A program made the translations under genes and the position numbers. DNA of 13,530 nt from contig JAWBON010000032.1 of assembly GCA_038826135.1 (NCBI GenBank), positions 1-13,530 on the forward strand, in the 5' to 3' direction. Shown here piece by piece: positions 1,271 through 12,433 of this stretch. The notes beneath the pieces were generated by a model. That model searched no databases, was not told the origin of the DNA, and saw only the letters and a program-made list of their open reading frames with translations. Numbering within the stretch: position 1 is the first letter of the stretch; each line of letters opens with the position of its first letter. This DNA comes from Candidatus Odinarchaeota archaeon (lineage in GTDB: Archaea > Asgardarchaeota > Odinarchaeia > Odinarchaeales > Odinarchaeaceae).

Positions 1271-1702
1271 TTGATTTACACGGTTAGAAATGAGGCTGTA
1301 GCCGCGCTCGCAGGCGGATTAATCGGTTTCGGAGACCCGCTTATAAAAATTAGCATGGAGGCGGCTGGCCTTACTAATTTTTTATTCTATGATATTCTAA
1401 GCTGGGTTCCGCTTATTCTTAACTGGCATTTTCTACTAGGCATGAGCATGGCTTTAATCGGTAGCATAATCTATGTTGTAGCTTTAGCTAATGGTAAAGC
1501 CTCTATAATTAACCCTCTCTCCGGCGGAGCATCATATATAACAATAGTTATCCTGTCAAGTATTTTTCTAGGTGAAGCCGTCACTGTTCCGAAAACTATC
1601 GGAATATTTATCATCATAATAGGCATCTACCTGTTAAGCCATCTCTCTTCACCAAGTAAGTCACTGAATGTGCGAGATAAAAAATTAGAGGAGAATAGTT
1701 AA
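1271..1702 (+). CDS. Small 4-TM DMT/EamA-superfamily membrane protein (first of a pair)
   Basis: 143 aa with four hydrophobic segments and a DMT signature (ALANGKASIINPL..ITIVILSSIFLGEAVT..KTIGIFIIIIGIYLL). TTG start preceded by AAGAGG; the exact start is uncertain. Confidence 0.8.
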   Translation: MIYTVRNEAVAALAGGLIGFGDPLIKISMEAAGLTNFLFYDILSWVPLILNWHFLLGMSMALIGSIIYVVALANGKASIINPLSGGASYITIVILSSIFLGEAVTVPKTIGIFIIIIGIYLLSHLSSPSKSLNVRDKKLEENS

Positions 1703-2094
1703 TGTTTCAATTAGAGAATCTTTTAGTGAGTGTACTGTTAGCGGTAGCCGCTTCTGCGATATTCGGTGTAGCTACACCTCTATTTAAGAAGGCTACGATG
1801 ACTGTTGGAGAGATAAGAGTTCACGAGTTTAAACAGGATTTCAGCGGGAATGTTAAAAAACTTCTTAACAAGTATATGGCTGTAGCAATAATTCTTCAAT
1901 TATCCGCCTGGCTGATATTCTTGATGGCGATATCCAGATACCAGATAAGTATAATAGTACCGGTTTTATCTACCACATATATTTTCGCAGCATTCTACTG
2001 TAATCGTTTTCTTAAAGAGAAGCTAACTTGGAAGGAAATACTAGGTATTCTAATAATAATCGTCGGTGTGGTTGTTTTAACGTTTCCATTTTAA
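1702..2094 (+). CDS. Small 4-TM DMT/EamA-superfamily membrane protein (second of a pair)
   Basis: 130 aa with four TM segments and an EamA-like C-terminus (ISIIVPVLSTTYIFAAF..FLKEKLTWKEILGILIIIVGVVVL). Start overlaps the previous stop (TAATG, 1700-1704). Confidence 0.85.
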   Translation: MFQLENLLVSVLLAVAASAIFGVATPLFKKATMTVGEIRVHEFKQDFSGNVKKLLNKYMAVAIILQLSAWLIFLMAISRYQISIIVPVLSTTYIFAAFYCNRFLKEKLTWKEILGILIIIVGVVVLTFPF

Positions 2095-2344: not shown

Positions 2345-4471
2345 GTGATGGTGAACATGCCTGACTCCGACACAACTCTTAAAACACTTTTTAACCCTGC
2401 ATCGGTTTGTATAATAGGTGCTTCCGCTAAGCCTGGTAAACTAGGCTACAATATTTTGGATAATATTATCAAATACGGGTTTAAAGGTAGGATTTACCCT
2501 GTTAACCCTAACTACCAGACTATTTTAGACCACCCCGTTTTTCCAAGTGTAAACGCGGTACGGGATGAAATAGACTTAGCTGTTGTAGCAATACCGGCTG
2601 ACAGCGTCTTGGATGTGGTTGAGGAGTGTGGTGTTAATCGTGTTAAGAACATAGTTGTGATCTCAGCGGGGTTTAAAGAGACAGGTAAAGAGGGGGCTGA
2701 AAGAGAGCGTGTTCTTAAAGAAATATGCAGTAAATATGGGATGAGGCTGTTAGGCCCTAATTGTTTAGGTGTTATAGACACGTTTACTCCTCTAAACGCG
2801 TCTTTCTCAGCTCAGATGCCTCTTAAAGGTAATATAGCGTTTATCTCTCAATCCGGGGCTTTAGGGACAGCTATACTAGACTGGTCTTTTAAGAATAGAA
2901 TAGGCTTCAGTAAAGTTATAAGTTTAGGTAATAAAGCGGATCTTGATGAATCTGATTTTATACTAGCTTTATCCGAGGATGTTAACACGAAAGTTATATT
3001 GTTATATATTGAAGATGTGAAGAACGGCAACCGGTTTGTTAAATCTCTTACAAAAGTTGTTAAGAAAAAACCTGTGCTTGTTTTAAAATCCGGTTCGTCA
3101 GCAGCCGGTCAGAGAGCCGCTGTCTCCCACACAGGCTCCCTTGCTGGTAGCAATATAGCTTATGAAACCGTGTTTAAACAGTTCGGGGCTTTACAGGTTA
3201 ACACAATATCAGATTTATTTAATTATGCTAAAGTATTCTCCACACAGCCAACTCCCAAAGATAATTCTGTTTGTATTTTAACCAACGCGGGAGGCCCTGG
3301 CATTATAGCTACAGACGCGTGTGAGAAACATGGTTTAAAACTCGCTCAACTTCAACCTGAAACTTTGAATGCTCTCAGAGAATGTTTACCGTTAAACGCT
3401 TCTATATATAATCCTATTGACATCTTAGGGGATGCTCAACCTGATAGGTATTATAAGGCTTTAGAAGTACTTGCGGATGATATTGGTATCAGCTCTCTGA
3501 TTATTATTCTAACCCCTCAAGCGACTACTAAACCTACTGAAACAGCTGTTGAACTAGTTAAACTTATAGTTAAAATAGGTAAACCTGTTGCAGCTGCTAT
3601 AATGGGCGGGGAGCAGGTGGCTGAGGCTAAAAGGATCCTGTCAGATAATAATATTCCTGTTTTCAGTTTTCCAGAGGATGCTGTTGAAAGCATATCTGCT
3701 TTAGTTCGTTATCAATTTATAGTTGGGAAGAAGGTGCCGCATAAAAAATTCAAGGTTAAGGTTGATAGAAAACCTGTGGAGGAGATAATTCAAAAAGTTT
3801 TAGGTGAAAACAGGCGGACTCTGCTTGGGGGTGAAGCGTGTAAGATTCTTTCCTTTTACGGTGTTAAAACTCCTAAAGTATTTTTAGCCACGAACAGTGA
3901 TGAAGCGTGCGACGCCGCTGCTAGAATAGGTTACCCTGTAGCTTTGAAAATAGCTTCACCTGATATAATCCATAAATCCGATGTGGGTGGTGTGGCTTTA
4001 AATGTGAAATCTGATGAGGATGTTAGAAAAATCTTCGTCGGGATGATTTCCAGCGCGCATAAACTTTTCCCCACAGCTAGAATATACGGTGTTGAAGTTT
4101 ATGAACAGGTTGATAAAGGCAGAGAGATAATAATCGGTGTCAACAGAGATCTTCAATTCGGGCATTTATTAATGTTCGGATTGGGAGGAGTATACGTTAA
4201 CTTTCTGAGAGATGTCTCCTTCAGACTCATACCTGTGAATGTTAGGGATGTAGATGAGATGATCAGAGAGACGAAAGTTTATAATTTGCTTAAGGGAGTG
4301 AGGGGGGAGCCTTCTTCCGATATAAAAGAATTGGTTGAGACGATTTTAACAATATCACAGTTAGTGGAGGACTTCCCTGTAATCTCAGAGTTGGATATTA
4401 ATCCCATATTCGTCTATAATAAGGGGAAAGGATGCATAGCTGTTGATGTTAAAATGTCTTTATATACTTGA
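2345..4471 (+). CDS. acdAB: ADP-forming acyl/acetyl-CoA synthetase, fused alpha-beta (ACD)
   Basis: CoA-binding LFNPASVCIIGAS..PGKLG, GPNCLG, SQSGALG, SLGNKADL, phospho-His SHTGSLAG, TNAGGPG, NPIDILGDA, then an ATP-grasp beta domain (GYPVALK, HKSDVGGV, FGLGGVYV, ELDINP). No GNAT domain, so not PatZ/YfiQ. The start may be 2345, 2348 or 2357. Confidence 0.93.
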   Translation: MMVNMPDSDTTLKTLFNPASVCIIGASAKPGKLGYNILDNIIKYGFKGRIYPVNPNYQTILDHPVFPSVNAVRDEIDLAVVAIPADSVLDVVEECGVNRVKNIVVISAGFKETGKEGAERERVLKEICSKYGMRLLGPNCLGVIDTFTPLNASFSAQMPLKGNIAFISQSGALGTAILDWSFKNRIGFSKVISLGNKADLDESDFILALSEDVNTKVILLYIEDVKNGNRFVKSLTKVVKKKPVLVLKSGSSAAGQRAAVSHTGSLAGSNIAYETVFKQFGALQVNTISDLFNYAKVFSTQPTPKDNSVCILTNAGGPGIIATDACEKHGLKLAQLQPETLNALRECLPLNASIYNPIDILGDAQPDRYYKALEVLADDIGISSLIIILTPQATTKPTETAVELVKLIVKIGKPVAAAIMGGEQVAEAKRILSDNNIPVFSFPEDAVESISALVRYQFIVGKKVPHKKFKVKVDRKPVEEIIQKVLGENRRTLLGGEACKILSFYGVKTPKVFLATNSDEACDAAARIGYPVALKIASPDIIHKSDVGGVALNVKSDEDVRKIFVGMISSAHKLFPTARIYGVEVYEQVDKGREIIIGVNRDLQFGHLLMFGLGGVYVNFLRDVSFRLIPVNVRDVDEMIRETKVYNLLKGVRGEPSSDIKELVETILTISQLVEDFPVISELDINPIFVYNKGKGCIAVDVKMSLYT

Positions 4472-4491
4472 AAAAAACTATAGGTGATAGT

Positions 4492-5553
4492 ATGAAATCT
4501 CTATTTGTAACCTCTTGGGAGGGATTCTCCGGTAAAACAGCTTTCATATTAGGTTTCTCGCAAATATTAGTGGAGCATGGATTTAAGGTAAGCTATTTTC
4601 GCCCTGTAGGTAGACCTCAAACCTCCGTTACAGAGGGGCTTATCGACCCGGATGTTTTATTGATGAAAGAAGCTTTACAACTATCTTTCCCTGTCAGTGA
4701 ACTGGCCCCTATCTTAATAGAACCGAATTATTTGAGCATCTACGCTAATAAAGATGTGGAAGCGGTGAAGGCTAAAATCTTAGAGCAGTATACTAAGATA
4801 GCTAGTAAATCAGATTTAATAATGGTTGAGGGCGGGCTTTCACCTGAAACCATGACCGCGTTCAACTTAAATAATATAGATGTCGCTGGATTTTTAAATT
4901 CAAAAGTTCTGATCATCTCCGGCGGTGTCAGTGATAATTCTATAGAGAAAATACTATTTTATAAAAATATTTTTGATATGAGAGGGATACCATTTGTGGG
5001 GGCTGTTTTAAACCAGGTACCACCGCACATGGTTGATAAGGCTAGAAACGAGTATTCTAAAATACTTAATAGTAGGGGTGTTAAAGTGTGGGGTGTAATA
5101 CCCCGAAACTATGAGATAACTTCTCCAACCGTTAGAGAAGTCTTAGAATTATTAGAAGGTGATGTGCTCGTTAACGGTGATGTTAACAGGATTATTGGAA
5201 ACATATTCATAGGTGCTATGCAAACCGAGTCTTCTCTAAGATATTTCAGAAGGTCTGAGAATAACGCTATTATAACAGGCGGGGATAGGCCTGATATTAT
5301 ATCAGCCGCTGTGGAGACGAATGCTTCTGTAATAATTCTAACAGGGAATCTAAGACCCACAGAACAGGTGTTGGTTAAGGCTGAGGAGAAAAATATCACG
5401 GTTATAATGGTTCCCCAAGACACTTATACCACTGTTAAAATTCTTGAGTCTCTTACAGGTAAAATCCGCCCATCTGACAGTTACAGAATAAATTTAACTA
5501 AGAAAATGGTGGCTGAGTATATTCCTTGGAGAGAACTTTACGCAGCTATTTAG
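4492..5553 (+). CDS. Phosphotransacetylase N-terminal-like protein (BioD-like/AAA_26 + DRTGG), no Pta catalytic domain
   Basis: SLFVTS..GFSGKT, YFRPVG, MVEGG, GAVLNQVP, IGAM, IITGGDRPD, ILTGNL. The protein ends after the DRTGG domain. ATG4492 has RBS AGGTGA at 4482-4487 and is preferred over the TTG4468 in the ORF track. Confidence 0.88.
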   Translation: MKSLFVTSWEGFSGKTAFILGFSQILVEHGFKVSYFRPVGRPQTSVTEGLIDPDVLLMKEALQLSFPVSELAPILIEPNYLSIYANKDVEAVKAKILEQYTKIASKSDLIMVEGGLSPETMTAFNLNNIDVAGFLNSKVLIISGGVSDNSIEKILFYKNIFDMRGIPFVGAVLNQVPPHMVDKARNEYSKILNSRGVKVWGVIPRNYEITSPTVREVLELLEGDVLVNGDVNRIIGNIFIGAMQTESSLRYFRRSENNAIITGGDRPDIISAAVETNASVIILTGNLRPTEQVLVKAEEKNITVIMVPQDTYTTVKILESLTGKIRPSDSYRINLTKKMVAEYIPWRELYAAI

Positions 5554-6817
5554 TTTTTTGAAGTTCTTTAATTATTTTCTCAGCAACATCCACTCTTATT
5601 TTACCGATTTTAATAAGCTCCTCAACCACCCGATCTATAATATCCTCTCCCGCGCCGGCTGTAATCGCTATGTTTCTAGCGTGGAGCCTCATATGCCCTC
5701 TCTGAATTCCTTCAGTTGCTAAAGCCCTAATAGCCGCGAAATTCTGAGCTAAACCTAATGCAGCTGCAACCTCTCCTAATTCATTAGCGGTTTTCACATT
5801 CAAGATTTTTATTGCAAGCTGAGCTATAGGGTGAACTTTAGTAGCCCCGCCGACTAAGCCCACAGCCATAGGCAGTTCTATCGAACCTACTAAATTCCCT
5901 TCAACATCTTTCTCCCATCTTGTTAAAGGCTTATAACCACCGTTTAAAGCAGCGTATGCGTGAGCGCCAGCTTCAACAGCTCTTGTATCATTACATGTTG
6001 CCAGCATTAAAGCAGTTATACCGTTCATAATACCTTTATTATGTGTAGCGCATCTGAATACATCCGCTTCAGCGAACGCGTACGCGTCGATTATTTTATC
6101 CACAACATCTTCACCACCAAGAGCCTCTTTATCAAATGTTGCTTTAGCCCTTGATAAACGGTAAACTGCAAGATTTGAAATAATCCTTAAACCAACTCTG
6201 CCCCCTGTGATCTGGGATACTTTATCAGTAAGCGCCTCACACATAGTGTTGACAGCATTAGCACCCATAGCATCTCGAGTATCAACTAATAGATGAATGA
6301 TAAGCATGGGGCCTCTCGCAGAGTCAAGTACTCTGACAACAACATCTTTAGCACCTCCCCCAAACCTGTTTAGAACAGGATCCTGCTCATTAGCTATTCT
6401 AAGCAGTTCTGCTTTATTATTTAAAAGCTCAACTCTCTTAGCATACGGGTCTCTTACTCCGAGAATTTGAATCTGACCTATCATAACAGGGTCGGTGCTA
6501 TTTGTGTAGAAACCGCCTCGAATCCTAGCGAGTTTAGCAGCATTAGAAGCAGCTGCTACAACAGAAGGCTCCTCTATAGCCATTGGGATAAGATAGTCTC
6601 GACCGTTAATAAGAAAGTTAACGGCTATACCTAAAGGTATTCTCGTAGTCCCTATAACATTTTCAATCATTTTATCAGCGACGCTTGTAAGCGGGTCATC
6701 CACGTCGCCGAGTGTCTCTAAATCTTTATCTGTTAATCCAGCGAAATTTTTAACAAGTTCTCTTCGCTGAGTAATCTTTAACTTGTAGAATCCGCTTATA
6801 TTCGAAGTCTTCTCCAA
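5546..6817 (-). CDS. mvaA: HMG-CoA reductase, class II (bacterial/degradative type)
   Basis: ENVIG, PMAIEEPSVVAAAS (catalytic Glu), DAMGAN, ATHNKGIMNG (Lys), NDTRAVEAGAHAYA (Asp), GIQRGHMRLH (His). A TTG start at 6817 (MEKTSNISGFYKL) with upstream AAGGTGG is preferred over the 6832 start. Confidence 0.95.
   Translation of the reverse strand: MEKTSNISGFYKLKITQRRELVKNFAGLTDKDLETLGDVDDPLTSVADKMIENVIGTTRIPLGIAVNFLINGRDYLIPMAIEEPSVVAAASNAAKLARIRGGFYTNSTDPVMIGQIQILGVRDPYAKRVELLNNKAELLRIANEQDPVLNRFGGGAKDVVVRVLDSARGPMLIIHLLVDTRDAMGANAVNTMCEALTDKVSQITGGRVGLRIISNLAVYRLSRAKATFDKEALGGEDVVDKIIDAYAFAEADVFRCATHNKGIMNGITALMLATCNDTRAVEAGAHAYAALNGGYKPLTRWEKDVEGNLVGSIELPMAVGLVGGATKVHPIAQLAIKILNVKTANELGEVAAALGLAQNFAAIRALATEGIQRGHMRLHARNIAITAGAGEDIIDRVVEELIKIGKIRVDVAEKIIKELQKTK
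5554..5559 (+). terminator. Possible oligo-T terminator of the acd-DRTGG unit
   Basis: A T6 run directly after TAG 5551-5553; archaeal intrinsic terminators are often oligo-T. It is short and lies within the antisense HMGR coding region, so it may be chance. Confidence 0.3.
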
Positions 6818-6832
6818 ATAATCCACCTTCAA

Positions 6833-6949: not shown

Positions 6950-8584
6950 ATGCTAAAACACGCTCATATAATAGCGGTTTTGGTTGGTATAATTGTTCTC
7001 ACTCCGTCAATTACAATCGTGAGTGTTAGCAATATTAACACTCCCTGTACAACAATGCAGGTTTTAACAGATGATGGTGTGCCTGTGGTCTTCGATGTTA
7101 TAAAGAAGCCTGCAGCTTCTAGTAACGCGCCTGTGGCTGTTCTAATACACGGCTTCTCAGGTAATAGGAAAATGATGAAGATGATAGGGCTTGCTTTAGC
7201 TGATAAAGGTGTGGTATCTGTTCTGGTGGATTTAAGAGGGCATGGGGATAGTGGAGGCTTTATGAGTTATGTTAACAGTTTCGACGCTGATATTCAAGCT
7301 GTACTAGGTGAGTTAGCTAGTAAATCTTTAGGTAATATAAGCCGGCTTGTTTTTATAGGTCACAGTATGGGTGGAAGTGTGGCTGTAAATATGAGTAAAA
7401 TCCTTCAACCTTTAGCTACTGTTGGAATCGCTCCTGCTATCTCACCTTCATCTGTTAATATTACTGACCCTGAAAATCTTCTATTGATAATATCTGAAGG
7501 GGACACTGTGATTGATAACCAGGCTGTTATTAACGCATTCTATGAATCGATTAACGGAACAGGTGAGCCTAATATTATATATTATGCAGGCGGTTCTGAA
7601 AAAAAGCTTTTCACAGATGATTATTCAGATCATCTTAGTGTACTTTACAGGCCTCCTGTTATAGATGAAATCGTTAAATGGGTTACAAGAATTGTTTTAG
7701 GGGTGGAAGAGTCTTCTTCAATTAACAGTGATCTTATCGGTGCATGTGTGTTCTCAGCTGTTATAGGTGGTTTAATGATCTTATTACCGTTCGGTCATAA
7801 AATATTGCAATATTTTAGGAAGCGGAATGGTACGCCTCTAGTTACTGTAGATATACGACCCCGTAAAGCGTTTATATACTCTGTAATAGGTTTTATAGCG
7901 GCAAGTGTGGGTGGGGCTGGGTTAACTGTTTTGTTATCTTTACCGTTTTTTATAGTAAGCCCGCTGCTTTTCACAAACTTTGTCACCGCGCTGTTTTTAG
8001 GGAATTCTATCGCAATAGGGGTTTTAGGAGGGGTTCAGCTTAGGAGAAAGATAGGTAAATCTTTTTTTAAAAGATTTTTTAACCTTATGTTAACTCGTAA
8101 TCTAATTTATAATTTGATAGCAGGGTTTATTTTAGGAGTGTTATTAATCATACTATTCTATACCACTATCGGCAGTAATACCACATCTACTCTGTCAACA
8201 TCACCTGTTAGACTAGCATTTTTAATGTTGTATTTGCCTGTATACTTGTTGGTTTTCCTATTATATGAGTTATTTTTCCGTGGTTTAATTAGACATGAGC
8301 TGGGTTCGGGAGTATTGTCAGCTATAACTAGCTGTATTATTCAGATAACGGTTATGCTTTCTTCGCTTCTAATTCAAATATTAATTGCAACAGTGATTCT
8401 GCAACAGAATGTTTCTTTCATACTACTGGGTCTTCCCTTCATAATCCTTCTTGTATCTGTTTCCACAATTATCAGCGCTGTTTTCTATGAGGCCTCTAAT
8501 GGTTGGCTGACTCAAATACTCTCGAATGCTCTGCTACTATCCTCGATAGCTATAGCTTTATCGAATATAATCTACATATTCTAA
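6950..8584 (+). CDS. Membrane-anchored alpha/beta hydrolase with a polytopic C-terminal membrane domain
   Basis: N-terminal hydrophobic helix, oxyanion LIHGFSG, DLRGHGDS, nucleophile elbow GHSMGG (Ser codon 7364-7366), candidate Asp (EGDTVID) and His (SDHLSVL), then about 7-8 hydrophobic segments. Confidence 0.85.
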   Translation: MLKHAHIIAVLVGIIVLTPSITIVSVSNINTPCTTMQVLTDDGVPVVFDVIKKPAASSNAPVAVLIHGFSGNRKMMKMIGLALADKGVVSVLVDLRGHGDSGGFMSYVNSFDADIQAVLGELASKSLGNISRLVFIGHSMGGSVAVNMSKILQPLATVGIAPAISPSSVNITDPENLLLIISEGDTVIDNQAVINAFYESINGTGEPNIIYYAGGSEKKLFTDDYSDHLSVLYRPPVIDEIVKWVTRIVLGVEESSSINSDLIGACVFSAVIGGLMILLPFGHKILQYFRKRNGTPLVTVDIRPRKAFIYSVIGFIAASVGGAGLTVLLSLPFFIVSPLLFTNFVTALFLGNSIAIGVLGGVQLRRKIGKSFFKRFFNLMLTRNLIYNLIAGFILGVLLIILFYTTIGSNTTSTLSTSPVRLAFLMLYLPVYLLVFLLYELFFRGLIRHELGSGVLSAITSCIIQITVMLSSLLIQILIATVILQQNVSFILLGLPFIILLVSVSTIISAVFYEASNGWLTQILSNALLLSSIAIALSNIIYIF

Positions 8585-9576
8585 ATGTAATTGTTTTCCA
8601 TATACCAGTTAATCGTTTCTTTTAACCCGCTTCGCAAATCATATTTTGGCCGATAACCTAGTTCACGCTTAGCTTTTTCAATGCTATACGCTCTGTTACA
8701 ACAAACCGAGTCTGCTGTGCTAACATGATATAAGAAATTATCTCTTCCAAGCAGCTTGTTTACCCCCTGTATTGGAGCGATCATAAGCTTGGCTAGATTT
8801 TTTGAAATATGTTTACAAGGAGGTTTTCTATTTGTAAGTTCAGCTAATATTTTATAAACTTCATTATAGGTGTACGCTTTATCTTCACTGATAATATAAG
8901 TTTGGTTTCTCGACTTATCGCTTTTTTCTAAAGCTAAAGTAAAACCTTCTACAACATCTTTCACATGAACAAACTGAACAAGGTTTTCACCACTACCCAC
9001 GATGAATCTTGTCCCAAGAGAATTTTTAGCGAAACATGTAATAGTCCAGTAGGAGACGTCGTTAACATTCCTGGGGCCGTATATTCCAGACGGTCTTATT
9101 ATCGTGTATTCTAAGCCTTTTAAACCGTATTTTTTAACTATCTCCTCAGCTTTTAACTTAGATTTACCGTACTCGTATACAGGGTTAGGTTCAGTGTCTT
9201 CATCCGCGGGTGGATTTGGCACAGGCCCAATAACCTCGGTTGTACTACAGTAAATCAGCCGTTTAACCTTGTTTTTTAAAGCCGCTTCCGCTAAGTGCTC
9301 GGTGCCCTCGACATTGATTTTTTGATAGAGTTTTTTACTTCCGTGAAAAGTATAGTAGGCTGCTAGATGAATCACTACATCAACTCCTTGAACAACGCTT
9401 TTAATAGTTTCAGGTTTAGAAAGATCAGCGTATCTTAACTCGGAGACTAAGTTTTCAATCAATTCTATGTTGCTGTTCTCTCTTACCATACCTATAATCT
9501 GGTATCCTTTGCTAGCTAAATGCTCTATTAAATGGCTTCCTAAAAATCCTGACGCACCGGTTATGAGGATCTTCAT
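8581..9576 (-). CDS. Extended SDR, NAD(P)-dependent epimerase/dehydrogenase (3-beta-HSD/OleD-like branch)
   Basis: ILITGASGFLG, VIHLAA, INVEGT, YCST, catalytic YGKSK, IRPSGIYGP, FVHVKDV, KAKRELGYRP. RBS AGGTG at 9585-9589. Confidence 0.9.
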   Translation of the reverse strand: MKILITGASGFLGSHLIEHLASKGYQIIGMVRENSNIELIENLVSELRYADLSKPETIKSVVQGVDVVIHLAAYYTFHGSKKLYQKINVEGTEHLAEAALKNKVKRLIYCSTTEVIGPVPNPPADEDTEPNPVYEYGKSKLKAEEIVKKYGLKGLEYTIIRPSGIYGPRNVNDVSYWTITCFAKNSLGTRFIVGSGENLVQFVHVKDVVEGFTLALEKSDKSRNQTYIISEDKAYTYNEVYKILAELTNRKPPCKHISKNLAKLMIAPIQGVNKLLGRDNFLYHVSTADSVCCNRAYSIEKAKRELGYRPKYDLRSGLKETINWYMENNYI

Positions 9577-9597
9577 ATCTAGAACACCTTTAAAAGA

Positions 9598-11058
9598 CTA
9601 AAATATTTCATATGGGTGTTTACAATCTCTCCTATATACCGTGTATGTGAACATTGATGGTATAGCAGCACCATCATATGGTTCTAAAGCGCTTCTCATA
9701 TACATGTCCCCTAAGTTTGTAACTCTGAATATACCTGTGTTCGCTATGTCTTCCATTATTTTCTCTCTATTAGCGTTAGATAAAGCTAACCCTATTGATT
9801 GAACCTTGTCAACACCTTTAAAAGCAGTGTTAAAGGGGACCTGCTCTATGTGTTTAAGCGCTTCCTGTAATCTTTCCACAACTATTATTTCAATGAATCT
9901 TTTACGATTGTATATGTTGAATTCTGGAAGACTATCCGTTAACTCGTTTAAAACACTTTTCTCCTTAGAAATCACTATTGTCCACGGATTATCCTGGTTA
10001 CTTGATGATAATACTTTGACGCCTTTAAATTGAAGTGTTCTTCTAGCGCTTTGGAGAAGATAAAGGCTATCGCCTTTATTTTTCATTTTAAATTCACCGC
10101 CGATAATGTCTAAGAATTTCGCTACACGCTCAGCGAACAACGAAGCCTCCTCAGCTTTACCTATAAACACTGCTTGAGTGGGGGAGCTGCAGAGCTGTTG
10201 ATCGTAGATTATTATGTTTAAAGCCAGCTCTTTAGCTGCTGTTTCAGCTGAAGCCGCGTCTATAATAGCTAAGCCTGTTAAAGGACCGTTAACGACAAGT
10301 TTAGGGTGATGCGGGTTTTCAGCTATAAGTTTAGCTATAACGGTTCTAGCTGGTTCCCCACCCCAGAAGTTCACCAAACCTAAGTGAGCTTTAGTTAACA
10401 AATATTTTAGGGTTGGGCTGTCATGTGTAAAATAACTTATTACTATTGATGAGAGAATTCTCTCCGCCAGCTCGTTTTGTTCAGCAAGCTCCTTCAAGTT
10501 TTTATAAACTTCGATGATTCCAAGATAATTTGAAAGTGAGGGCTTAAGTATAGTTAAATTTCCTGTTATAAGTGAGAGTGTTGTTGGTATAAGGGGTGGT
10601 ATCAGAGAGTTACCGGAGCTTATTATAAAAACAGGTCCTGCCGGCATATACTTGAAATACTCTTTTTCAGATATTTGAATGAATTTATAAAGGCCTTCAA
10701 TGCCATTACTGAAAGACGCTTCCAAGTTTCGTCTAATATTCTCCTCGCTTAACATATATGATACTAGATTAAACTCTAATTCGATTAGACGTTCACTGTA
10801 ACCTGTAGACTCGGATAAAGTTTTCTTTAAATTCTCTAGCCTTCCACTCTTTAGCTTCTCTTGCCATAGCAAGCCCAGTTTATTAAATATCATAATTCGG
10901 TCTTCTATAGGGGTCTTAGATAAGCTTAACTGAATTAACTTAGATTCTTTTAGAGTCTCCTCTAAAAACTTCTCACCGAGTTCGAATACGTCAATTCCCC
11001 CGATTGTTTTTTGAACAACATCATTTGTGGGTTTAAACGTCATTGGTTTTATATCCAT
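9598..11058 (-). CDS. LuxC-family acyl-CoA/acyl-protein reductase (ALDH-like fold)
   Basis: PAGPVFIISSGNSLIPP, GNLTILKPS, VNFWGGEPA, NGPLTG, and YDQQLCSSP, which matches the LuxC active-site YDQQAC.S motif (Cys codon 10189-10191). RBS GAGGT at 11065-11069. Confidence 0.85.
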   Translation of the reverse strand: MDIKPMTFKPTNDVVQKTIGGIDVFELGEKFLEETLKESKLIQLSLSKTPIEDRIMIFNKLGLLWQEKLKSGRLENLKKTLSESTGYSERLIELEFNLVSYMLSEENIRRNLEASFSNGIEGLYKFIQISEKEYFKYMPAGPVFIISSGNSLIPPLIPTTLSLITGNLTILKPSLSNYLGIIEVYKNLKELAEQNELAERILSSIVISYFTHDSPTLKYLLTKAHLGLVNFWGGEPARTVIAKLIAENPHHPKLVVNGPLTGLAIIDAASAETAAKELALNIIIYDQQLCSSPTQAVFIGKAEEASLFAERVAKFLDIIGGEFKMKNKGDSLYLLQSARRTLQFKGVKVLSSSNQDNPWTIVISKEKSVLNELTDSLPEFNIYNRKRFIEIIVVERLQEALKHIEQVPFNTAFKGVDKVQSIGLALSNANREKIMEDIANTGIFRVTNLGDMYMRSALEPYDGAAIPSMFTYTVYRRDCKHPYEIF

Positions 11059-11068
11059 TTTTAAACCT

Positions 11069-12334
11069 CTACTTCCTGCTCATCATTTCCTCTAATGTTC
11101 CACCACAGGCTCTTTGAAGATCCCATCCCTCTTGAGGTGTAAATCTTCTCACATATGTATATTCTTTACCGTAGAATCTATCAGAACTATGAGCTTTCAT
11201 AAAATCGCCTGGATAGAATAGTTCAAGCCATGAGGTTGTGAACGGGTTGAATATCCCAAGCACACCTTCCTTGCCCTCGTCTTCTTCTATTAACTCGAAT
11301 GTTTTAGGGTCTAGTAGAAAAACATGTGATAGGGGGTATGGTACTTTATCCATAACACCGAAGCGGTCGATTAAAGCGGTTAAGGTCTCCGTCATTCCTA
11401 AAACATCCATAAAAGGCGCTGGCTGTTCTTCCCCATGTTTACTCTTAGCTTTAAAATATTTTCTTGATAAACTGACTATTTTATCATATGAGGGTAGATC
11501 CGTGAATCCTTTAGTCCCTCCCCCTGTTACAACTAAACCTCCTTTTCCAAGATTAACAGGCGGGGCTGTAGTGACTAACCGGTACATTAATTTTTTCAAG
11601 AAATTCATTTTATCAAATTTATCAGCCATAAGGTAGACGCCGGCTGGTGCTGTGAAAAACAGTTTAGGCTCTTCCTTGCTTTTAAGGAATTTGACAACGT
11701 TTTCTTTATTTAATTCAAGTCTCTGCCAATCCGTAGTACCGTCTTTGTTTCTAACCAGATTCATACCATATAATAATGGGATTTTTTTATTATCTAGTGT
11801 TAGATCAACGAATGCCACGAAGTTTAGTTTATGTCTTAATTCTGGAGCTGCCATGAATAAGGCTATTCCTTTATTCTGCTCTAAAACATCGCCGTAAACA
11901 TATTCAAATAAGTCTGTGTTAGCTTTAATCATTATAGCTAGGTCAATTGGACTCCTGTATATTTTAACAGGGGTTTTACCGGTGGTTCCGCTTGATGTAA
12001 AATACTCTCCTCCGGGTTCCGCGTCTTTTATTAAGAATTGTTTATGCCCTTCTCCTCTGAGCATATCCGCTGGTACAGCGAGCTTCGCTAAATCCTGGAA
12101 ATCCGCGTTTTTAGGGTTAACATCTAATTTTTCAAAAGTCTCTTTATAATAATCGCTTCTACGAGAGAAGAAATCTAACGCCTCTCTTAAGAGGTTTTTC
12201 CTAAGTTTTTTAAGATAGTCCGCTGATTTATTAAATAAATCATTGCTGTTTACAAGACCCCATATTTTCTGAACGTAAGGATCTTTTAATAATTTACTCT
12301 TTAAAGCGGATTCAAGTATTTGTTTCGAATTCAT
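11069..12334 (-). CDS. LuxE-family acyl-protein synthetase (LuxE/PaaK branch of the ANL superfamily)
   Basis: P-loop YFTSSGTTG, VTGGGTKG (cf. GGGWK), LGMTE (cf. YGMTE), YPGD, and C-terminal QRACGGT matching the LuxE acylated-Cys RGC motif (Cys codon 11105-11107). Directly upstream of the luxC-like gene, with RBS GGTG. Confidence 0.8.
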   Translation of the reverse strand: MNSKQILESALKSKLLKDPYVQKIWGLVNSNDLFNKSADYLKKLRKNLLREALDFFSRRSDYYKETFEKLDVNPKNADFQDLAKLAVPADMLRGEGHKQFLIKDAEPGGEYFTSSGTTGKTPVKIYRSPIDLAIMIKANTDLFEYVYGDVLEQNKGIALFMAAPELRHKLNFVAFVDLTLDNKKIPLLYGMNLVRNKDGTTDWQRLELNKENVVKFLKSKEEPKLFFTAPAGVYLMADKFDKMNFLKKLMYRLVTTAPPVNLGKGGLVVTGGGTKGFTDLPSYDKIVSLSRKYFKAKSKHGEEQPAPFMDVLGMTETLTALIDRFGVMDKVPYPLSHVFLLDPKTFELIEEDEGKEGVLGIFNPFTTSWLELFYPGDFMKAHSSDRFYGKEYTYVRRFTPQEGWDLQRACGGTLEEMMSRK

Positions 12335-12433
12335 TTTTCAACACCATTTTTAATTAAATTAGTTCTGCCTTTTTATTTTAATTCTATGGATAGATTTATT
12401 TATTTTTTGTTTTTCTAATATCGGGGTGATATA
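12335..12433. promoter_or_regulatory. Divergent promoter region between the luxE-like gene and the aminotransferase
   Basis: 99 bp, extremely AT-rich, with an RBS at each end (GGGGTGAT 12423-12430 on +; GGTG on - before 12334). No individual TATA box could be assigned confidently. Confidence 0.45.

Follow-up and report, generated by a model that had tools for sequence, protein, structure and literature searches.

A three-gene operon in a 13,530-nt contig of a member of the Candidatus Odinarchaeota (GenBank accession number JAWBON010000032.1, assembly GCA_038826135.1; the whole contig is referred to as the window) encodes a LuxE-like protein (P0001), a LuxC-like protein (P0002) and, of the extended type, a short-chain dehydrogenase/reductase (abbreviated SDR; P0003). 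The most likely function of this cassette, to which we assign a probability of about 0.6, is the reduction of a carboxylic acid to an aldehyde and then to an alcohol by a self-contained operon, driven by ATP and NAD(P)H. The host is an Odinarchaeum species, an Asgard archaeon (Odinarchaeia) represented by a 1.26 Mb genome that is 93% complete. An earlier interpretation made from the letters of the window alone (the sequence-only reading) had described the genes as a luciferase-free carboxylate reductase module, and its guess of an Asgard host was right.

The genes are co-oriented on the minus strand in the order LuxE-like, LuxC-like, SDR (Table 1). The gaps between them are 10 nt and 21 nt, with none longer, and a GGTG/AGGT motif is found 6–10 nt upstream of each of the three starts. 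The coordinates and gaps given in the sequence-only reading were confirmed exactly, as were the motifs it named and the cysteine codons it placed at 11105 and 10189.

P0001 contains the sequence SSGTTG at residues 114–119, with S114, S115 and T117 invariant in 22 family members, and its sole cysteine, Cys410, lies in an RACGG motif and is kept in at least 90% of the same sequences. When a profile of these 22 LuxE-like proteins (profile A1) was searched against the PDB, LuxE (chain 7xc6_E of PDB 7XC6) was retrieved with an E value of 6.3e-23, and the next matches were PaaK-type ligases at 2.8e-6 or worse. In the profile alignment, the invariant K275 of P0001 corresponds to K238 of LuxE, R396/R397 (conserved in at least 90% of the family) to R354/R355, and C410 to Cys364. 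In LuxE, cryo-EM has linked K238 and R354/R355 to adenylation and thioesterification and Cys364 is the acylated cysteine; the ANL C-terminal subdomain is absent and is replaced by a flexible tail bearing the cysteine (PMC9157457). An AlphaFold 2 (AF2) model of P0001 had a mean confidence (pLDDT) of 87.5, falling below 50 in the tail (residues 404–421). At a Z of about 27, the model came closest in fold to PaaK1, HCL and BT_0428, in each case to the N-domain; on PaaK-type ligases it superposes on that domain alone, and the structural alignment spans residues 13–403 of P0001 but residues 7–330 only of PaaK1. As modelled, P0001 is an ANL large domain in which the C-terminal subdomain is predicted to be missing, with a flexible cysteine tail of about 20 residues in its place, and this agrees with the defining architecture of LuxE. 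An Atlas feature search with P0001 found the LuxE domain PF04443 on 87 of the 100 nearest named clusters, and comparison with a canonical Asgard LuxE using hhalign gave a probability of 97.5%, with a common tail, R-x-C-G-x-T-x-x-E, in which the cysteines align. In NCBIfam, weak matches to FlxY, PaaK and LuxE were found at the N-terminus.

P0002 is recognized by the Pfam LuxC model (PF05893), with an E value of 3.4e-33 and a score of 115.5 bits where 21 is required. LuxC itself (7xc6_A) was the only strong PDB match, with an E value of 1.3e-9 using the single sequence and 7.7e-23 using a profile (A2). The sequence YDQQLCSS is found at residues 285–292, and YDQQLC (including Cys290), N150 and P259 are invariant in 22 P0002-family sequences. 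Cys290 aligns with Cys296 of LuxC (chain index 285 in 7xc6_A).

P0003 is matched by PF01370 (E 5e-49) and contains GASGFLG (GxxGxxG) at residues 7–13 and Y136-x3-K140; G7, G10, G13, S111/T113, Y136 and K140 are invariant in 22 members of its family. Its AF2 model has a pLDDT of 94.3. The best PDB match of P0003 is gox2253 (3wj7), which we take to be an aldehyde reductase. Among reviewed proteins, those nearest to it in structure are SdmB, NSDHL/ERG26, 3beta-HSD and OleD, and the best NCBIfam matches, all below cut-off, are HpnA (169.5 vs 367.65), SdmB (123.3 vs 600) and OleD (118–121 vs 580). A thioester-reductase domain model also matches weakly. Gox2253, 3beta-HSD, NSDHL, SdmB, OleD and HpnA are the nearest relatives of P0003; they are NAD(P)-dependent carbonyl/alcohol oxidoreductases of non-sugar, mostly hydrophobic or lipid substrates, but they share only 22–29% identity with P0003 and none is known to operate together with a LuxE/LuxC pair.

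These relatives bear on a variant of the proposal in which the LuxE/LuxC chemistry is the same but the final reduction of the aldehyde does not fall to the SDR. The SDR might instead prepare the acid, for instance by reducing a 3-oxo acid or, in the manner of OleD and NSDHL/SdmB, by oxidizing or decarboxylating a 3-hydroxy acid; alternatively, the aldehyde might itself be the product and serve elsewhere, for example in amination. Both the reviewed neighbours and the ranking of the NCBIfam models point in this direction, as does an aminotransferase gene lying divergently adjacent to the operon in Odinarchaeum. However, the matches are distant and below the family cut-offs, the best solved structure is gox2253, the SDR gene is always the last of the operon and the aminotransferase gene is adjacent in the Odinarchaeum genus only. 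We consider this variant unlikely.

The neighbourhood survey bore out the expectation that the SDR gene would be found beside the other two genes in relatives. The order LuxE-like, LuxC-like, SDR was present in 24 of 26 archaeal loci from several phyla, including those of Methanosuratincola, Methanomassiliicoccales, Sulfolobales-like metagenome-assembled genomes and Thermofilaceae, and others. In one of the two exceptions (L069, genome G897) a 10-N assembly gap replaces the LuxC-like gene and most of the SDR gene; the other is described below. Within the genus, dN/dS was 0.04–0.12 for all three genes, and the trio is under purifying selection. The recurrent order and the low dN/dS values argue that the arrangement is not due to chance. 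No fourth gene was conserved across the 26 loci, and no conserved lipid gene accompanies the cassette in them. The neighbours are instead lineage-specific, and include UbiA, a ComB-like phosphatase, an M20 peptidase, AOR, GrpB, MFS, thioredoxins and HMG-CoA reductase (HMGR).

A natural fusion of the LuxE and LuxC types in a single frame (P0134, 884 aa) was found in a distant relative, and supports the joint working of the two proteins. The fusion locus (L010:8001–10655) encodes a product approximately 30% identical to the window proteins, includes no SDR gene and lies behind genes for a radical SAM/SPASM protein, two unknown proteins and a carbamoyltransferase; it may represent another pathway built on the same reductase. 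A second apparent LuxE-LuxC fusion (898 aa, in L074) was rejected as an artefact of the open reading frame (ORF) caller in a genome of 60% G+C, the two matches being in different frames.

The mechanism that we propose is modelled on the LuxC-LuxE fatty acid reductase, with one further step for the SDR. The LuxE-like enzyme would adenylate a free acid using ATP and move the acyl group to its own Cys410, on the flexible tail that would replace both the C-terminal subdomain and CoA. In a complex of the two proteins, the tail would then swing into the LuxC-like reductase and hand the acyl group to Cys290, and the reductase would free the aldehyde using NAD(P)H. The extended SDR would most likely turn the aldehyde into a primary alcohol. 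We lean slightly towards a hydrophobic acid (fatty, isoprenoid or aryl) as the substrate, since the SDR has relatives of the lipid type and the family sets a precedent. A fatty or isoprenoid substrate, as in the route put forward in the sequence-only reading, is an inference, and more speculative still is the idea that the cassette supplies such alcohols to an archaeal lipid yet to be described.

Several observations weigh against the proposed two-step reduction. PF04443 did not match P0001 even at an E value of 10, nor any protein in the genome-wide search of the host; P0001 has no Pfam match of any kind, and a PDB search with the single sequence was empty. The NCBI equivalog models for LuxE (NF052244) and LuxC (NF052251) were also far from satisfied, with P0001 scoring 17 bits against a cut-off of 550 and P0002 65.6 bits against 750. 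As these models reject them, the proteins may depart from the lux system in substrate and even in carrier chemistry. Of the long, hydrophobic, L-shaped cleft of LuxC, only N-terminal positions could be mapped onto P0002 (L107 to L94, W111 to L98, M114 to Y101, S118 to E105, A121 to I108 and F297 to S291), and the C-terminal element was left unaligned. The substrates of SdmB, NSDHL and OleD are not aldehydes but 3-hydroxy or 3-oxo carboxylic acids, so the SDR could work before the acid is activated. Finally, the second exception to the conserved order (L068, genome G905, Thermoproteota) is a lone LuxE-like gene in an assembly with no LuxC-like gene anywhere. The LuxE and LuxC assignments of the sequence-only reading stand in part: LuxE and LuxC of 7XC6 are the only strong matches of the profiles (E values of 6e-23 and 8e-23), with the catalytic residues in register, but PF04443 is silent and the equivalog cut-offs are missed. 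Judged by sequence, P0001 is best described as LuxE-like and outside the LuxE family as curated, P0002 as a member of the LuxC family that is not an orthologue of luminous LuxC, and the pair as a divergent archaeal branch rather than lux orthologues.

The distribution of the cassette was assessed by counting genomes with its LuxE-like gene. This gene was found in 40 of 401 Thermoproteota genomes, 7 of 401 Thermoplasmatota genomes and 4 of 400 Asgard genomes, the last all in the genus of the window (1 of 85 genera). The family as a whole is small: when 1.84 billion representatives were searched, its members fell into 51 clusters at 50% identity. The Odinarchaeum LuxE-like protein is 58–67% identical to copies from other phyla (Thermoproteota and Methanomassiliicoccales), whereas the elongation factor 2 (EF-2) fragment of the window is 34–41% identical to its counterparts in the same genomes. 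In a quick tree with a poorly resolved backbone, the Odinarchaeum clade was placed inside a shallow clade with sequences from Archaeoglobaceae and Methanomethylicia. The contrast with EF-2, the occurrence in a single Asgard genus and the nesting in the tree suggest that the cassette was probably acquired laterally by the Odinarchaeum lineage from thermophilic Thermoproteota or Euryarchaeota. The alternative would be extraordinary constraint combined with massive loss. The sequence-only reading had seen relevance to Asgard lipid chemistry, and here the case is weak, given the few Asgard genomes involved, the likely lateral origin and the lack of a conserved lipid gene. For Asgard biology this calls for caution, as the operon is not a heritage trait bearing on eukaryote-like lipids, but a probable lateral gain confined to Odinarchaeum.

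A role in vitamin metabolism was also considered. Streamlined archaea that are auxotrophic for vitamins might rely on the cassette as an essential means of scavenging, by which the oxidized, carboxylated form of some universal metabolite (for instance, an acid derived from thiamin or thiazole) is reduced back to an alcohol that they can use. If true, this could explain how extremely conserved the sequence is across phyla, the lateral spread and how Odinarchaeum copes with ThiC and ThiD(N) but without Thi4, ThiG and ThiM, but we regard it as a long shot. Salvage or repair of an oxidized, carboxylated cofactor fragment (for example, thiamin acetic acid, thiazole acetic acid or pyrimidine carboxylate) back to the alcohol is, in our assessment, highly improbable. 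Salvage of this kind, from acid to alcohol, has been proposed for oxidized thiamin fragments in the paper describing OarX (PMC11223231), and the very high sequence conservation across phyla would fit a universal small substrate. Most carriers of the cassette are vitamin auxotrophs. In a sample of 71 genomes and four families, with Fisher tests on the counts, Thi4 was rarer in Thermoproteota carriers than in non-carriers (3/40 vs 13/20), as was ThiC (8/40 vs 12/20); ThiM was found in 1/40 and 0/20, respectively. However, PdxS, an unrelated control, was depleted likewise (4/40 vs 7/20), so the pattern was put down to general auxotrophy or lineage, with no specific link to thiamin; related genomes, moreover, do not count as independent cases. 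Other evidence against salvage is that no thiamin pyrophosphate (TPP) riboswitch was found near eight cassettes, Methanomassiliicoccales included, and no thi gene among the neighbours at the 26 loci. Only four of the 51 carriers have ThiM, and the archaeal SDR is of the extended type, not the FabG-like type of OarX. The carriers tend to be general vitamin auxotrophs, which fits a scavenging lifestyle. The Odinarchaeum genus (G000 and G301–G303) has ThiC and a gene of ThiD(N) length; Thi4, ThiG, ThiM and PdxS were not found in it, the complete 1.42-Mb genome included, and no known route to the thiazole moiety of thiamin or to pyridoxal phosphate was apparent.

That the module runs oxidatively, converting an alcohol or aldehyde to a thioester on the LuxC-like protein with energy conserved or the acyl group passed on, to the benefit of fermentative archaea that deal with alcohols and aldehydes, is scarcely credible: LuxC does belong to the aldehyde dehydrogenase (ALDH) superfamily, whose usual direction is oxidative, an ADP-forming acyl-CoA synthetase is encoded nearby in the window and an aldehyde:ferredoxin oxidoreductase upstream in one locus, but these neighbours are not conserved, no LuxE-type enzyme is known to run backwards and, according to a review, LuxC keeps only the active-site cysteine among the residues that other ALDHs use.

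The description of the cassette as luciferase-free held. No luxA/B or luxD gene is present in the window and LuxD (PF02273) had no match in the host genome at its 93% completeness. The three genome-wide matches to PF00296, all on other contigs, were examined as candidates for LuxAB and ruled out as Mer-like F420-dependent oxidoreductases. A 544-aa ORF (window 6950–8584, plus strand), convergent with the SDR gene and overlapping it by 4 nt, has an alpha/beta-hydrolase domain in its N-terminal part (residues about 50–215) followed by some 300 residues, up to the C-terminus, in which Pfam recognizes nothing. The ORF was found in only three of the four Odinarchaeum loci, and a LuxD-like, acid-releasing role is conceivable.

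The operon is otherwise flanked in the window by the genes for EF-2, two half-size EamA-like proteins, a pair made up of an ADP-forming acyl-CoA synthetase and a DRTGG/AAA_26 protein, a class II HMGR and the aminotransferase. The HMGR gene (5546–6832, minus strand; NAD-type model, 500 bits) lies downstream of the cassette; as the only HMGR gene in the genome it is read as a housekeeping neighbour. It is convergent with, and overlaps by 8 nt, the pair at 2345–5553 (plus strand), in which the genes for a fused ADP-forming acyl-CoA synthetase (708 aa) and the DRTGG/AAA_26 protein, a likeness of phosphotransacetylase's N-terminal part, overlap by 4 nt. The class II HMGRs of Thermoproteota that carry the cassette are 53–60% identical to the Odinarchaeum enzyme, and in one genome (G1048, locus L055) an HMGR gene is found approximately 7 kb from the cassette, which may reflect co-transfer or coincidence. 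The tandem EamA/TMEM234-like membrane protein genes (1271–2094, plus strand; 143 and 130 aa, overlapping by one base at 1702) probably encode a small heterodimeric transporter.

Table 1. Positions of the operon genes, the two predicted acyl-bearing cysteine codons and the upstream region in the window
Feature	Position	Strand	Basis
LuxE-like acyl-protein synthetase P0001, 421 aa, predicted	11069..12334	-	ORF
Cys410 codon TGT, predicted acyl-carrying tail cysteine	11105..11107	-	Read in sequence and alignment
LuxC-like acyl-thioester reductase P0002, 486 aa, aldehyde dehydrogenase superfamily	9598..11058	-	ORF and PF05893
Cys290 codon TGC in YDQQLCSS, predicted catalytic thioester cysteine	10189..10191	-	Read in sequence and alignment
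Extended short-chain dehydrogenase/reductase P0003, 331 aa, predicted aldehyde reductase	8581..9576	-	ORF and PF01370
Divergent intergenic region between operon and aminotransferase gene, AT-rich, 99 bp	12335..12433	.	Presumed promoter region

Few enzymes reduce free carboxylic acids to aldehydes, and those that do are of use in biocatalysis; the cassette would be a thermophilic, three-protein version without a carrier cofactor that has been kept in many anaerobic archaea. Its retention in very small genomes that have lost much of their vitamin biosynthesis suggests an important rather than an accessory role. Cultured carriers include Thermofilum pendens, Infirmifilum uzonense and Methanosuratincola. 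The sequence-only reading knew of no characterized archaeal system of this kind and, in agreement with it, no paper characterizing one was found in the literature.

Candidates of the OarX type (PMC11223231) share with the cassette an activating enzyme, an SDR and a proposed repair from acid through aldehyde to alcohol. They differ in being bacterial, controlled by a TPP riboswitch and clustered with thi genes, and in having a FabG-like SDR, none of which applies to the archaeal cassettes examined. In the flagellin glycosylation islands of Aeromonas, uncharacterized, non-luminous LuxE and LuxC proteins are encoded among genes for an acyl carrier protein (ACP), a FabG-like protein, an AMP-ligase and glycosyltransferases, and have been proposed to make a lipo-sugar (PMC7874193). 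Here the likeness is a luciferase-free LuxE and LuxC pair with a purpose other than light, but the ACP, FabG-like, AMP-ligase and glycosyltransferase partners are absent from the archaeal cassette.

LuxE/LuxC-like pairs are not rare in the Asgard phylum. Of 351 Asgard genomes searched, 84 had a PF04443 match; these belong to 31 of the 78 genera, with none in the genus of the window, and a LuxC-like gene adjoins the PF04443 gene in six of the ten best Asgard loci. These canonical, uncharacterized pairs share the two-enzyme logic and the tail motif of the cassette. However, the canonical LuxE is recognized by PF04443, is only about 23% identical to the family in the window and forms a separate family, and no counterpart of the window SDR was found at the ten loci, which reach about 1.5 kb to each side of the gene. 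A likeness in overall chemistry (activation by ATP, a thioester and reduction by NADPH to an aldehyde or alcohol) links the cassette to carboxylic acid reductases (A-PCP-R) and fatty acyl reductases, but in those enzymes the carrier domain bears phosphopantetheine and the R domain is of the SDR type. In the archaeal cassette, by contrast, the proposed carrier is a protein cysteine and the first reductase would be of the ALDH type.

Among characterized systems, the cassette comes closest to the fatty acid reductase that LuxC and LuxE form in luminous bacteria, known from Photobacterium phosphoreum (PDB 7XC6, PMC9157457). The two systems have in common an adenylating enzyme without the ANL C-terminal subdomain and with its cysteine on a short, flexible tail, a catalytic lysine and arginine pair, an ALDH-type reductase with YDQQxC, and adjacent genes. 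The archaeal cassette differs in that luxAB, luxD and luxG are absent and the gene order is E-C rather than C...E, and in that its host is an anaerobic, thermophilic archaeon and a dedicated SDR is always attached.

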